Program-made: the position numbers and the translations under genes
Shown here: piece after piece, positions 3,183 through 51,982 of the stretch
How the letters are laid out: each line of letters opens with the position of its first letter
Numbering within the stretch: position 1 is the first letter of the stretch
The notes under the pieces: model-generated
Told to the model about the DNA's origin: nothing
The model's database searches: none
Seen by the model: the letters and a program-made list of their open reading frames with translations, nothing else
Source: Methanobacteriota archaeon
GTDB taxonomy: Archaea > Thermoplasmatota > Thermoplasmata > SG8-5 > JAGLSY01
Length of the DNA: 64,000 nt
Assembly: GCA_020697715.1 (NCBI GenBank)
Contig: JAEHCO010000001.1
Coordinates: forward strand, 2,222 to 66,221
Direction of reading: 5' to 3'

Positions 3183-6100
3183 CTATCCCATCCCGTGTTC
3201 TGTATCTATGATTTCATCATCAATGTCATCCTGGCCAGGTGCATCTATCTGGCCAGTATTGCCCATATCTTTCTCGGCATCCATGCCACCCTTGATGTCC
3301 TTCAGGCTTCCCAGATCGACCTTCATAATAACTTTGGATATTCCATCGTTCTGCATTGTCACCCCTACTAAATTAGAGGCCTCTTTCAATGTCACCTCAC
3401 GAAGTGATATCTGAAGGAATTGCGCCCGCTCGGAATTCCTCTTTATCATCTGCGCGATATTGCGTGCGTTTATGGCATCGAGGTTTTGATCGACCTCATC
3501 AAGAACGTAGAAAGGCGATGGTTGGTATCTCTGAATTGCGAATATGAAGGACATGGAAACCAGACCCTTCTCTCCACCAGAAAGCGCTTCCAATCTATGC
3601 ACTTTCTTTCCCTTGGGTCTGGCCTTTATCTGAAGACCACCCTGGAAAGGATCTGCCATATTCTCTATAAGGAGCTCGGCCTCTCCACCATCCGAAAGAT
3701 CAGCGTACACGTCCTTGAACTTCTCATTTATACCATCGAAGACCTTCAGAAGCCCGGTCTTCTTTTTCTCTTTGAGCTCGCCGACAAGTTTTATCAATCT
3801 CTTTCTCTGGTCTTTCAATCTTTTTACTTCTATTTTGAGCTCTTCATGTCTGGCCTTCTGTTCATCATATGTTTCCAGTGCCAGCATGTTAACACTTCCA
3901 ATGGTCTCCAGTGTCACTTCGGACCTTCTGATTATCTTCTTCAGGGTTTCCATCGATGGTATCTTATCCTTATCTTCGAGCTTGATGTCCTTAACCGCTT
4001 CCTCGATCTCCATCAATCTCTTGGAAGCGTTCTCATACTCGATCCTCAGACCTCGGATAAAGTCCTCCTTGGTCTCCGCTCTGTGATTGAGTTTCTCTAT
4101 CTCGGCCTCGGTCTCCATCTTGGCCTTGTACACTTTGTCTCTTTTGTTCCTTGCTTCGATGAGATCCTTGCCCATGGATTCCTGTAATTTTAATTCAGCT
4201 TTAAGACTTACTTGGAGCTTCTCAACCATTTTGGACTTTGACTTGATATTCTTCTGATTTTCTTCGATCTTATTGTCAAGGTCATCCAATGTGGCCTGTA
4301 TCTCCTTCTTTCTGTCTTGATATAATTTGATCTGTGCTTTTAATGAATCCTTGCCAGCTTCCAGCTCGGATCTGATATTGACATGCTCGGATAATTTGGA
4401 CTGAAGCTCATTCATTTCCTTACCCATCTTCGCAGGCGTGTGTTTGAACAGAGTCTTTTCCATCTCATCTTTCTGAGCCTTCAGGGTCTCCACTTTGTCA
4501 GCCAGGATCATGATCTCGGATTCCACTTTCGTGATATCCTTTTCTAAGGCTATCATTTCCTTTTTCTTTGTATTGATATTATTATCCAGGACCTTGAGAT
4601 TGGTCTGAAGCTCCTTTTTCTTCATATTGAGAACTTCACTTTTACCCAGTGTTCCCCCGGTTGTGGCACCAGCCTCTTTAATATTCTTTTCAAGCTCGAT
4701 CAATTCCAACCTCAGTGAGCTTAATTCCCCACTGATCTTGTCCGCCTCATTTGTGGCCTTTCTCAGCTTCTTGGAAACATCATCCAAGGATTTCTTATCC
4801 ACGCTTCCCACTTTGATCATGGACCTGGACTTCAAGCCACCTATCATGGCTCCAGAAGCCTCGATCAATTCCCCATCTTTTGTCACGATCCTCACACCGC
4901 CCATGATCTCCCTTGCTTCTGCAAGAGAGCCCATGACCACGGTGTCTCCGAACACATATGAGAATACATCTCGATATTTCTCATCGAAATCCACCAGGTC
5001 TAAAGCGAATCCGAGTGATCTCTTGACTGCCAATTGAGCCTTGCCCCTTGGCTTCTGCATCATCATCTTATTGAGTGGAAGGAATGTCGCCCTTCCGATC
5101 TTGTTCTTCTTGAGATAGGATATACATTTCTCCGCCACTGCATCATCCTCGACGACCAGGGCCTGCATCCTTGGCCCTGCGGCCGTGTTTATCGCTGTCT
5201 CGTACTGATCATCCACCTTGACCAGTTCGGCGATAGTTCCATGAATGCCCTTTATGTCACCACGATCCCTTGCCTCCATCATCTTATCAACTGCCGCGGT
5301 GTAACCTCTGGCCACGGACTTGGAGGCCTCATTTTCAGCCTTAAGTTGATTATACTGCCTTGTCAGGGACCTTATGGCATTCTCGAGTTCTACAGCCTGC
5401 TTGGAAAGCTCTGTCTCCCTGTTCTTCTTTTTGAAAAAGCCTTCTTGCAATGCTTTCAATTCCTTGTCCGAGCTCTTTGTGCTGGAATTATGCTCCTTAA
5501 GGCGCCAATCCGTATCCTTGATCTCGAATTTCAGAGCTTTTTTGGTCTCTTCAAGCTCTGCCACTTCCTGCTTGATCCTCTTGTGTTTGTCTATGGCTCG
5601 ATCTTTTTCCAATATCGAACTCTGTACCTGGGAAGAAGCAGTGTCCATCTTGTTCTTCATATCAACTACGTCATCTTGAAGTTTAGAAATATCCGTATCT
5701 GACTTGGAGAGCTTGGACTTGTGCTTTTTCAAAGACTTATCAAGTTCCTTCATCTCACGGTCATTTTCTTTTATTTTGGCCTCAGTGGATCTGAGCTCGG
5801 TATTAAGATCATCAAGCTCTGTGTCGATCTTCTTCATGTCCAGGGCTTTCTTCTTTTTCTCGCTCTTTAGCTCGGGAATTTGTTCTTTAGAGAGCTCCGA
5901 AGAATCATTGCCTCTTGCGATCTCCACGCGTAGCCCATCTATTTTGTTCTTTAATTCCAAGTTCTCTTGTGAGCTCTTCTCAGAGAATTCCTTCTCCAGA
6001 TCATCCAATTCCGTTGTGAGCTTATCAAGTTTTTCTTTGAAAGAGTCCTTCTCGGCTTTTGTCTTGGATATCTCTTCCTCTCTCTTGTTGATCTGCTCTT

Positions 6101-7257: not shown

Positions 7258-7369
7258 GGGCCCATGGCTTAGCCTGGTTATAGCGCCCGGCTGATATGGA
7301 ACAAACCTCAAAAAAGGGTTTGTTCTCTCCGATACCGGGATGTCTCGAGTTCAAATCTCGTTGGGCCCA
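7258..7369 (+). tRNA. tRNA-Ile (anticodon GAU) with 37-nt canonical intron (7297-7333) between positions 37/38
   Basis: GGGCCCA/TGGGCCC acceptor stem, D-arm GCTT…TAGC, anticodon stem CCCGG/CCGGG with loop CTGATA-[intron]-A, T-loop TTCAAAT, discriminator A; intron contains 9-bp helix GAACAAACC/GGTTTGTTC. Confidence 0.75.
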
Positions 7370-43187: not shown

Positions 43188-43337
43188 CTAAGATACAATA
43201 GATATAAAGTTTTACCTTTTATGACATAAGATGATAAATGAATAAAAATTATAAGTGGGCTGAGGCGGATCGAGAAAAATACGAAGCTTTTTTCGACATA
43301 GCCTCGGTTCACGATTAAAATCAAAAAGAAAACAAAG

Positions 43338-43479
43338 TGGGCCGAGGCGGATTTGAACCGCCGATCTTCGCCTTGCTGATTGCATGTCAGAAATTTCTGG
43401 CATGCAACTGTAAGGGCGACGTCAGATGGAGTGAAATGTAAGCGAACTTGCCATTTCAAAACCCCTAGACCACCGGCCC
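43338..43479 (-). tRNA. tRNA-Val (anticodon UAC) with two introns: about 34 nt in the D-loop and 35 nt at canonical 37/38
   Basis: Gene-strand 5' GGGCCGGTGGTCTAG…TGACGTCGCC-CTTACA-[GTTGCATGCCAGAAATTTCTGACATGCAATCAGCA]-AGGCGAAGATCGGCGGTTCAAATCCGCCTCGGCCC-A; exons give a canonical 73-nt tRNA; exact D-loop intron boundaries not resolved. Confidence 0.6.
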
Positions 43480-43591
43480 GCGGTATTTCGGGGATTGGCG
43501 AAGTGGTATTTATTTCTGTGGTTTGATATGGTTTTTGTCAAAACCTTTAAAATGATGGTGGATATCACCTTAACATCCACAGCAAGAGTAT

Positions 43592-43724
43592 GCGAGGGTA
43601 GCTAAGCATGGTCAAATTGACCTGCAACCACTGACGAATCAACAGCGTTTGCAATCAAGGCTAACGGCGATAGACTCAAGATCTATTCCTTAGTGGTTCG
43701 CCGGTTCAAATCCGGTCCCTCGCA
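43592..43724 (+). tRNA. tRNA-Leu (anticodon CAA, type II) with about 48-nt non-canonical intron in the D-loop (about 43617-43664)
   Basis: GCGAGGG/CCCTCGC acceptor stem, D-loop AGCATGGTCAAA, intact anticodon arm ATAGA-CTCAAGA-TCTAT, 13-nt variable arm, T-arm GCCGG-TTCAAAT-CCGGT, discriminator A; 6-bp helix GGTCAA/TTGACC spans the exon-intron junction. Confidence 0.6.
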
Positions 43725-43876
43725 CCTTTTTATTTTTTGAGATAGCAGACTGTATTTTACACATACCCAGCAAGAATATGAAGCGAACGAGCAGGGTCAC
43801 CCGAGTTTTCTTTTGCAATGGAATACTTGTTCTTTTGGAGGGTGACCCAGCACAGTGAGCGTAAAAGAAAAGGCTT

Positions 43877-43900
43877 CCGTTTGAATCCGGTCCCTCGCAC
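43877..43900 (+). repeat. Direct repeat of the tRNA-Leu 3' end (20 of 20 nt identical: AATCCGGTCCCTCGCACCTT), att-like remnant
   Basis: Second copy 173 bp downstream of the tRNA; T-arm upstream of the repeat is degenerate, so not a functional tRNA. Confidence 0.5.
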
Positions 43901-43901
43901 C

Positions 43902-44612
43902 TTATTTTACCATATTTTGTATCATCTCAACAAGCCTATCGATGATGACCTCATTGGCTTTTTCTCCGAATTCCTTCGATGCAAGCTGGGGATCTCCCAT
44001 GACACCAGTTGGGAAGTATTTTTCAGGGTGCTTGAGTATCATAAAAGGTGGGAAATTTGGATGATTGGATTCGGCAGTTCCCTTTACCAGATCAGGGCGT
44101 ATGGCCATCACCCGCGAGGTCTCGATCATGCCCGCATGCCCGTCATTGACAGGTATCTCGATCTCGTTCATCGTGTACGCGATATCATAATCCGAAAGTA
44201 CCATCAGATTAATGTCCTCATCATGGGCTTCCAGAACAGTCTCACCTGCAAGCTTCAGCGCGGTCATGTGAGTTCGTCCAGCATGACCGGATAGGACCAC
44301 GATATTCCTGAATCCCATCCTGATCAACTCGGACAGGATGTCCTCCATCATCATCCGCAGAGTTTCGAATCTGAGTGTTATGGTTCCCGGGAAGTTCTTG
44401 GTGCTCGAACACTGTCCGTATTTCAAAATAGGTAACAGATAGGCTCCCAATCGCTCTGAAACTACTTCCGCAACATATTGGGGTTGCAAACAATCGGTGG
44501 ACAGGGGAAGATGTGGCCCATGCTCCTCTATCGCACCCAGTGGTAATATCGCGATAGAGCTCTCATTCACTTTTTCCCTTATCTCTTCAGTGGTCATTTC
44601 CTCCAATAACAT
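43902..44612 (-). CDS. Creatininase-family amidohydrolase (possibly ArfB-like formamide hydrolase)
   Basis: 236 aa; creatininase signature ILPLGAIEEHGPHLPLSTD and metal-binding His/Glu/Asp pattern. Confidence 0.8.
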   Translation of the reverse strand: MLLEEMTTEEIREKVNESSIAILPLGAIEEHGPHLPLSTDCLQPQYVAEVVSERLGAYLLPILKYGQCSSTKNFPGTITLRFETLRMMMEDILSELIRMGFRNIVVLSGHAGRTHMTALKLAGETVLEAHDEDINLMVLSDYDIAYTMNEIEIPVNDGHAGMIETSRVMAIRPDLVKGTAESNHPNFPPFMILKHPEKYFPTGVMGDPQLASKEFGEKANEVIIDRLVEMIQNMVK

Positions 44613-51424: not shown

Positions 51425-51982
51425 ATGGGAGATAAAATAAGGAGTTTCATCGCTGTCGATATAGGCCGCGTTCCTGAGCTCTTGAAATTCGTCAAGGCTT
51501 TGAGAGATATAGATTCAGATCTCAAGTTCGTAAAGCTGGATAACCTTCATATAACCTTGAAATTCTTGGGTGATATCGATGAGGAATTGGTTCCGGAGAT
51601 CGAGAGCTTTATGAGGAAGGCAGTTGAAGGACATGGACCTTTTGAAATGGATCTGAAAGGTACTGGTGTGTTTCCCAATTACAAAAGGATATCAGTGGTA
51701 TGGGCCGGCCTTGAGAAGACAGAGGTCTTGGCCGATATCGCAGATAAGCTGAACAACAACTTGACCATGATGGGGTTCCGTCAGGAAAGAAGGGGATTCT
51801 CACCTCATATCACGATCGCGAGAGTGGGGAACACTCTGGATACGATCGGCTTGCCGGAAACCGTCAAAAAGTTCGAGAACTTGGAGTTCACCACACTTAA
51901 GGTCGAGAGGATCATTTTGAAGAAATCCGAGCTCACACCTAAGGGTCCGATCTACTCGGATGTTGTAACTGTTGAGCTATAA
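51425..51982 (+). CDS. thpR: RNA 2',3'-cyclic phosphodiesterase (2H phosphoesterase, LigT/ThpR)
   Basis: 185 aa; two H-x-T-x motifs (HITLKFLG and HITIARV) at the expected spacing. Confidence 0.8.
   Translation: MGDKIRSFIAVDIGRVPELLKFVKALRDIDSDLKFVKLDNLHITLKFLGDIDEELVPEIESFMRKAVEGHGPFEMDLKGTGVFPNYKRISVVWAGLEKTEVLADIADKLNNNLTMMGFRQERRGFSPHITIARVGNTLDTIGLPETVKKFENLEFTTLKVERIILKKSELTPKGPIYSDVVTVEL

Follow-up and report, generated by a model that had tools for sequence, protein, structure and literature searches.

The closest described counterpart of the intron reported here is that of the Methanopyrus kandleri pre-tRNA-Glu(UUC), a D-loop intron at position 20b/21 with an HBh' motif that has been tested in vitro (Kaneta et al. 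2018, PMC5829648). A BHB intron in the D-loop has also been documented in the pre-tRNA-Thr of Aeropyrum pernix (PMC3241643), and in Crenarchaeota, Thermoproteales and Thaumarchaeota BHB or relaxed-BHB introns occur beyond position 37/38, the D-loop included (Sugahara et al. 2008), with two introns in some tRNAs of the crenarchaeal or thaumarchaeal type. In Euryarchaeota, by contrast with this comparison group, non-canonical introns are few: tRNAscan-SE 2.0 lists 25 in 144 genomes overall, one in five Thermoplasmatales genomes, and six, together with one two-intron tRNA, in three Methanomassiliicoccales genomes (PMC8450103 Table S7). Given these counts and the D-loop precedents, the D-loop BHB intron is a type already known, rare but recorded in the Thermoplasmata clade. 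[quoted passage not shown]

Here we report that the window, the whole 64,000-nt stretch of DNA that was analysed, contains at 43592-43724 on the plus strand a genuine leucine tRNA gene of an uncultured Thermoplasmata archaeon, with an intron in its D-loop. We put at about 0.9 the probability that this is a functional tRNA-Leu(CAA) gene with a relaxed-BHB intron at position 21/22, predicted to be spliced by EndA. Like the M. kandleri intron, it belongs to a euryarchaeal host, interrupts the D-loop, with insertion points only one or two nucleotides apart, and has a relaxed BHB without a proper exon-side outer helix. It differs in interrupting tRNA-Leu(CAA), as a single 49-nt intron at 21/22 with extensive complementarity to its exons. 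The M. kandleri intron is removed by EndA, there an (alpha-beta)2 enzyme, in a case tested biochemically, whereas removal of the Thermoplasmata intron by EndA is a prediction.

The gene reads GCGAGGG UA GCU AAGCAUGGUCAA (49 nt) C GGC G AUAGA CUCAAGA UCUAU UCCUUAGUGGUUC GCCGG UUCAAAU CCGGU CCCUCGC A, a class II tRNA with intact acceptor stem, anticodon arm, T-arm and long variable arm, in which the extra 49 nt separate the D-loop from the 3' D-stem strand. The original prediction had named a tRNA-Leu(CAA), with intact anticodon and variable arms and with the extra sequence placed between these same two elements, and the sequence read directly from 43592-43724 agrees with it on all of these points; its estimate of roughly 48 extra nucleotides is corrected to 49 nt. 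When the insert was removed in silico, ARAGORN called an 84-nt tRNA-Leu(caa), while the unspliced precursor gave no ARAGORN match, and it is on this pair of results that we judge the feature real. Predictors that do not support non-canonical introns overlook the gene: ARAGORN found no tRNA in the whole window, and a search of the window with Rfam at the gathering threshold recovered neither tRNA-Leu nor tRNA-Val, its single match being a tRNA-Ile. At E<=10, Rfam gave a sub-threshold tRNA match of 19 bits, which covered the 3' two-thirds of the Leu gene only.

Relatives were gathered from reference genomes via the flanking creatininase-family gene, by which three were found: L001, a 'Methanobacteriota archaeon' MAG (97% protein identity), and L002 and L003, both 'Thermoplasmata archaeon' MAGs. 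The named homologues of the ArgRS encoded in the window are likewise from Thermoplasmata or Thermoplasmatota MAGs, and the other genes in the window (Topo VI A/B, aRF1, deoxyhypusine synthase, ScpB, type IV pilin) are consistent with an archaeal chromosome. A metagenome scan with the 3' 16-mer of the tRNA-Leu returned 120 loci, which were then parsed. Three of them (L009, L045 and L004) carry intronless tRNA-Leu(CAA) genes with the exons joined at the intron site, and ARAGORN called 3/3. The L009 gene, called tRNA-Leu(caa) as is the spliced form from the window, differs from the window exons at 2/84 positions, one of them nt 22 and the other, the sole difference in exon 1, A17 to U. Chance is excluded by the contiguous exons of L009 together with L001, where the whole precursor is 100% identical to that of the window (133/133). 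The parts of the gene, all on the plus strand, are as follows, an arrow marking the predicted cut.

43546..43552, plus strand: TATA-like box TTTAAAA, a putative archaeal promoter judged from its sequence, about 40 nt before the tRNA 5' end and conserved in L001
43592..43615, plus strand: exon 1 (nt 1-21), with the acceptor 5' strand GCGAGGG, U8 A9, the D-stem 5' strand GCU and the D-loop AAGCAUGGUCAA
43610..43613, plus strand: exon strand GGUC (nt 18-20a) of the 4-bp central BHB helix, pairing with 43659-43662
43614..43616, plus strand: 5' splice-site bulge AA↓A, predicted cleavage 43615/43616
43616..43664, plus strand: intron, 49 nt, in the D-loop at tRNA positions 21/22, missing in L009, L045 and L004
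43617..43620, plus strand: 5' strand UUGA of the intron helix h', pairing with 43655-43658
43623..43627, plus strand: 5' strand UGCAA of the intron stem extension, partner UUGCA at 43649-43653, in the fold with cloverleaf and BHB enforced
43626..43639, plus strand: intron stretch AACCACUGACGAAU, complement of the variable-arm region 43685-43698 (inverted repeat I3)
43655..43658, plus strand: 3' strand UCAA of the intron helix h'
43659..43662, plus strand: intron strand GGCU of the central BHB helix, a strand also used by L087
43663..43665, plus strand: 3' splice-site bulge AA↓C, predicted cleavage 43664/43665
43665..43724, plus strand: exon 2, with C22, GGC, G26, anticodon arm, 13-nt variable arm, T-arm, acceptor 3' strand and discriminator A
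43677-43679, plus strand: anticodon CAA, within the loop CUCAAGA
43727..43738, plus strand: T-rich tract TTTTTATTTTTT, a likely transcription terminator by its sequence, just past the gene

The splice motif was sought with a BHB scan over all pairs of 5' and 3' sites, which looked for an outer helix, a 4-bp helix and a 3-nt bulge on each strand, with the cut set between bulge nucleotides 2 and 3. In the resulting candidate, exon 1 ends at precursor nt 24 and exon 2 starts at nt 74; GGUC/GGCU forms the central helix, AA↓A and AA↓C the bulges, UUGA/UCAA the intron helix, and the outer helix is 1 bp. Two 3-nt bulges thus lie on opposite strands at either end of a 4-bp helix, with the splice sites inside them. 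Two of the four central-helix pairs are G.U, and the exon-exon outer helix h beside the 3' bulge, which in a strict hBHBh' motif has at least 2 bp, consists of the single pair U17a.G23 in the window, L001 and L002, so that what counts as the 3' 'bulge' is strictly one strand of an internal loop. With no more than this one U.G pair as outer helix on the exon side, the predicted splice motif is a relaxed BHB (HBh'-like). Nor is this a canonical 37/38 intron, since the anticodon loop CUCAAGA is uninterrupted and the intron lies at 21/22. When the precursor was scanned alone, several decoy (p,q) pairs scored equal to the chosen one, and the choice of BHB therefore rests on the comparison with orthologues.

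This comparison settles the choice. At least ten further loci (L024, L063, L069, L079, L080, L084, L087, L093, L094 and L108) have a 20-30 nt insert at exactly the insertion site of the window, and introns of 20-49 nt occupy the identical site in 12 related tRNA-Leu(CAA) genes. Some of the loci with D-loop introns lie on Methanomassiliicoccales-like contigs, that of L069 being placed by the named homologues of its succinyl-CoA synthetase. A common layout, GGUC AA↓N (h') ... (h') G(G/A)C(C/U) (A/C)A↓N GGCG, is found in 12/12 intron-bearing genes, with h' helices that differ widely (UUGA/UCAA, GGUG/CACC, GGCGC/GCGCC, GGCGU/ACGCC, CCGU/ACGG, GGUGCU/AGCGCC and CGCUUCGG/CCGAGGCG) and an outer helix of 2-3 bp in 10/12 genes, L087 having none. 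We trimmed these to the BHB motif in an alignment of 12 genes and seven distinct intron classes (A3). The central helix is 100% paired, compensatory changes on both sides occur in 4/4 h' pairs, and the observed covariation score was reached by 0/500 shuffles. Controls in which the 3' partners were slid by 1-3 columns address the fact that A3 was built in the BHB register: 97% of its cells pair, against 24-49% in the slid alignments. The non-canonical BHB-type intron of the original prediction is thus supported by orthologues, but the pairing on which it was based, exon GGTCAA with intron TTGACC, fails, because these are adjacent inverted repeats that form only a hairpin over the 5' junction (GCAUGGUCA/UGACCUGC in the MFE fold). 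Taken as the BHB, this exon GGUCAA:intron UUGACC pairing was rejected as a competing hairpin that excludes the actual BHB.

The window intron shares with the short introns of Methanomassiliicoccales-like tRNA-Leu(CAA) the same site after GGUCAA, the same central helix and the same bulges, and the two are evidently either homologous or recurrent at one site. The short introns, at 20-30 nt, add little more than a small loop to the BHB, and their outer helix is mostly of 2-3 bp; unlike them, the window intron has 49 nt, a 1-bp outer helix and an exon 2 that begins with C rather than A. In L040, L048 and L059 (and the end-truncated L039) a canonical 37/38 intron of 21-27 nt replaces the D-loop intron between nearly identical exons. 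Among close relatives, tRNA-Leu(CAA) is therefore found in three states: with no intron, with a D-loop intron or with an anticodon-loop intron.

A second tRNA gene, close to the first, bears on the position of the cut.

43338-43479, minus strand: tRNA-Val(UAC) with two introns, about 110-112 nt from tRNA-Leu and divergent from it
43426-43459, minus strand: D-loop intron of tRNA-Val, 34 nt, BHB GGGG/CUCC, h' of 7 bp
43374-43408, minus strand: canonical 37/38 intron of tRNA-Val, 35 nt

Doubly spliced, this gene was called tRNA-Val(tac), 73 nt, and it resembles in its two introns the crenarchaeal and thaumarchaeal-type tRNAs mentioned above; two-intron tRNAs are rare in Euryarchaeota. L001 shares the D-loop intron of this tRNA-Val, with one compensatory h' change, and L002 lacks it; on that distribution we regard the intron as recently gained or lost. 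With a clean BHB and simple absence from L002, this nearby intron indicates that the lineage handles D-loop introns. It also allowed the cut rule to be verified against the intronless L002: the L002 sequence GGUCUAGGGGUUCUGACG is recreated by one choice only, cleavage after the second of the three bulge nucleotides, which gives an exon 1 of 20 nt and an intron of 34 nt. The same cut recreates the intronless sequence for all short-intron Leu orthologues. Applied to tRNA-Leu, the rule gives an intron at 43616-43664, at nt 21/22 in Sprinzl-style numbering, with exon 1 ending ...GGUCAA and exon 2 starting CGGCG, one base away from the boundaries that the original prediction implied. Several alternative placements of the intron (for example after nt 7-9, with GCAAUCAAGGCUAAC as the D-arm) are also accepted by ARAGORN; these were dropped because exon 1 matches the D-loop of the orthologues, AAGCNNGGUCAA.

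We therefore favour the following course for the functional tRNA-Leu(CAA), in which the identity of the gene, the position of the intron, the BHB geometry with its covariation and the selection on the exons are shown by the sequence comparisons. The gene would be transcribed as a precursor of about 133 nt with the 49-nt intron at 21/22. In the splicing-competent fold, exon GGUC pairs with GGCU near the intron 3' end as the 4-bp central helix, flanked by the AA↓A bulge and the AA↓C stretch with the two predicted cleavage sites, and the intron's own helix UUGA/UCAA, extended by UGCAA/UUGCA, closes the motif. EndA, we infer, cuts at both sites, and an RNA ligase presumably joins the exons. The product would be an 84-nt class II tRNA with a mature D-arm predicted as GCU-AAGCAUGGUCAA-C-GGC, that is, the D-loop followed by C22 and the D-stem strand GGC; cleavage, ligation, the enzyme and the exact cut that makes nt 22 a C all belong to the predicted part of this scheme. 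A Pfam scan of 35 window proteins detected no EndA (tRNA_int_endo) gene. A gene of the LigT / 2'-5' RNA ligase family (2H phosphoesterase) lies at 51425-51982 on the plus strand, 8 kb from the tRNA pair.

The pattern of substitution shows purifying selection on the exons. Between the window and L001 the precursor is invariant, against 84-90% identity in the spacers and 67% identity (33% divergence) at third codon positions of the neighbouring gene. The precursor in L002 has five substitutions (positions 44, 49, 50, 51 and 62), every one of them in the intron loop, and its BHB and all 84 exon nt match the window (P = 0.006). The substitution at 62, A to G at 43653, preserves its pair in the intron-stem extension (U-A to U.G). 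There are 0 exon substitutions in the three genomes, and we found neither relaxed constraint nor lost expression signals.

The intron interior raises a further question. The MFE fold of the precursor (-46.3 kcal/mol) is not the BHB fold: in it the D-loop pairs with the intron 5' end and 14 nt of the intron with the variable arm. Enforcing cloverleaf and BHB gives -37.8 kcal/mol, a loss of 8.5 kcal/mol in stability. The intron, about twice the length of its homologues at 49 nt, has a conserved interior of 34 nt. It is ~90% identical to that of L002, whereas the canonical intron of tRNA-Val cannot be aligned between the window and L002. Two comparisons yield p-values, both modest and computed post hoc: the complementarity of the inverted repeat I3 between intron and variable arm (14 nt, 86% complementary) is equalled by 0.8% of shuffled loops (p = 0.008), and the intron shows 0/49 differences from L001 against 9/69 in the tRNA-Val introns (Fisher p about 0.01), with 20/167 in the spacers. 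Taken together, the relaxed motif, the alternative fold, the length and the conservation suggest that the intron interior may be under selection. It may be, then, that the interior is a functional RNA, either an antisense segment that, by pairing with the variable arm and the D-loop, keeps the precursor in an alternative fold and so serves as a folding or splicing switch, or a small circular RNA that is stable after excision; the conservation against both L001 and L002, the variable-arm complement, the stabler alternative fold and the doubled length would all favour this. We nevertheless consider it rather unlikely. This type of intron is present in three genomes only, its conservation may stem from gene conversion or from a locally low mutation rate, it has no C/D box pair or match to an Rfam family, and the exon side of the intron-exon pairing never varies and so can show no covariation. 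If it were true, the alternative, non-cloverleaf fold would have to be resolved before the relaxed BHB is cut, in an archaeon whose relatives have a narrow-specificity alpha'2 enzyme, and the intron would be a folding or splicing switch or, once excised, a stable circular antisense RNA.

A euryarchaeal intron with a second role is reportedly known, Clouet d'Orval and colleagues being said to have described in 2001 a pre-tRNA-Trp intron that carries a box C/D guide RNA. The window intron is like it in being long and conserved, with an interior that pairs with the exons of its own precursor, and unlike it in having no box C/box D pair and in lying in the D-loop rather than at 37/38. An intron-encoded box C/D guide was rejected for want of a box pair: CUGACGA is the only such element in the window intron, which had no Rfam match at E<=10, and the L002 intron has CUGAUGA with no partner CUGA rightly placed. 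The idea that the intron is simply part of the tRNA duplicated in inverted orientation was also discarded, its complements of the D-loop and the variable arm being in the wrong order.

Turning to the boundaries, nt 22 is C under the bulge 2/3 rule and A in the closest intronless orthologue, so it could be supposed, as the original prediction implies, that the intron spans 43617-43665, with exon 1 ending ...GGUCAAA (43616), exon 2 starting GGCG (43666) and A22 in the mature tRNA. Such a cut would exactly restore the consensus, L009 and most relatives reading GGUCAAAGGCG, and ARAGORN accepts its product equally well. We hold it to be improbable, as it needs cleavage past the third bulge nucleotide on both sides, the pair (25,74) is missing from the BHB candidates, and the bulge 2/3 rule fits tRNA-Val and the short-intron Leu orthologues alike; moreover, C before GGC is natural, being present in other archaeal tRNA-Leu genes (L078, L082). 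The intron at 43616-43664 with C22 thus remains our preferred reading. That the locus is a pseudogene, a tRNA-Leu broken by a 49-bp insertion with loss of function, is highly improbable: the failure of standard predictors, a BHB that is relaxed and not the most stable fold, and the partial tRNA copies around the locus would be compatible with it, but the exons are invariant in three genomes where neighbouring synonymous sites are 33% diverged, every substitution avoids the BHB, many relatives have covarying BHB introns at the identical site, and the promoter and terminator signals are retained. An insert located elsewhere, or a pseudogene, would have told against the original prediction; with invariant exons and the insert in the D-loop, it stands in this respect.

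The surroundings of the two genes contain repeats. Downstream of both tRNA-Leu and tRNA-Val lie partial repeats of the gene's own 3' end, and one further tRNA gene lies elsewhere in the window.

43780-43899, plus strand: 120-nt unit downstream of tRNA-Leu, starting after a copy of the tRNA 5' flank
43236-43270 versus 43318-43352: partial copy of the tRNA-Val 3' end with its 3' flank, 35 nt, 77% identical, 82 nt downstream of the gene
7258-7369, plus strand: tRNA-Ile(GAU) with a 37-nt intron at the canonical 37/38, Rfam 49 bits

The repeat pairs around tRNA-Leu are 43704-43731 / 43879-43906 and 43573-43592 / 43761-43780. The 120-nt unit contains a 9-bp inverted repeat (GGGTCACCC...GGGTGACCC), ends with a copy of tRNA nt 57-73 plus CCTTAT, and is 119/120 identical in L001, its flanking spacers being 84-90% identical. 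At ~3893-4072 on the minus strand, L001 has an extra, different unit of 184 nt inserted exactly at the tRNA-Leu 3' end, with the direct repeat AATCCGGTCCCTCGCACCTT at its borders; its end motifs (CGAGCA...CAGCGCAGTGAG..TAAAA) recur in the window unit, and its internal inverted repeat differs in sequence. L002 has a 157-nt unit at 2157-2313 on the plus strand, bounded by CGGTCCCTCGCATATTATTTTT. This pattern resembles the att-site duplications left by integrase activity with a crossover in the T-loop, and the units look like the residue, or miniature passengers, of such integrase-mediated recombination. No integrase was found among the 35 window proteins scanned. Scans of viral contigs with the 16-mer and the unit motif gave unrelated coding matches only, and a viral or plasmid source for the repeated 3' end of the tRNA was rejected on that ground. 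The unit at 43780-43899 (unit 2) was likewise rejected as a second or split tRNA, having no cloverleaf, a replaced C56 and an MFE z-score of -1.0, with no Rfam match and no significant folding energy.

The copied 3' end of tRNA-Val parallels what is seen at tRNA-Leu. In L002 the divergent tRNA-Val/tRNA-Leu pair is inverted relative to the creatininase-family gene, and in L003 the tRNA-Val adjoins that gene, which fits the same inversion; the arrangement suggests that the pair may have been inverted by recombination between the repeated tRNA-end copies. Copies of the 5' end also occur, upstream of the related tRNA-Leu(CAA) genes of L009 (690-915), L040 (3880-4083), L048 (2240-2315) and L059 (1236-1367), with coordinates oriented so that the tRNA is on plus, where one to three partial copies (GCGAGGGTAGCTA, then a hairpin) were found. 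In three of these four loci (L009, L040 and L059) an antisense copy, TTAGCTACCCTC, lies ~20-25 nt upstream of the gene, and it could pair with the tRNA 5' end in a leader transcript. The BHB of the tRNA-Ile in the window is imperfect: 3/4 central pairs form, and an extra base separates h' from the central helix.

In summary, tRNA-Leu(CAA) and tRNA-Val(UAC) would both seem to be missing from this genome without intron-aware prediction, and gaps of this kind distort inferences of completeness and codon usage for Thermoplasmata MAGs. The locus adds well-supported relaxed-BHB non-canonical introns and a two-intron tRNA in a euryarchaeal class where such introns are rare, and it bears on the proposed co-evolution of intron diversity with EndA architecture, in that the characterised endonuclease is said to need strict motifs. 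Together, the states of tRNA-Leu (no intron, D-loop intron or 37/38 intron) and the presence or absence of the D-loop intron in tRNA-Val constitute a small natural system for the gain and loss of introns.
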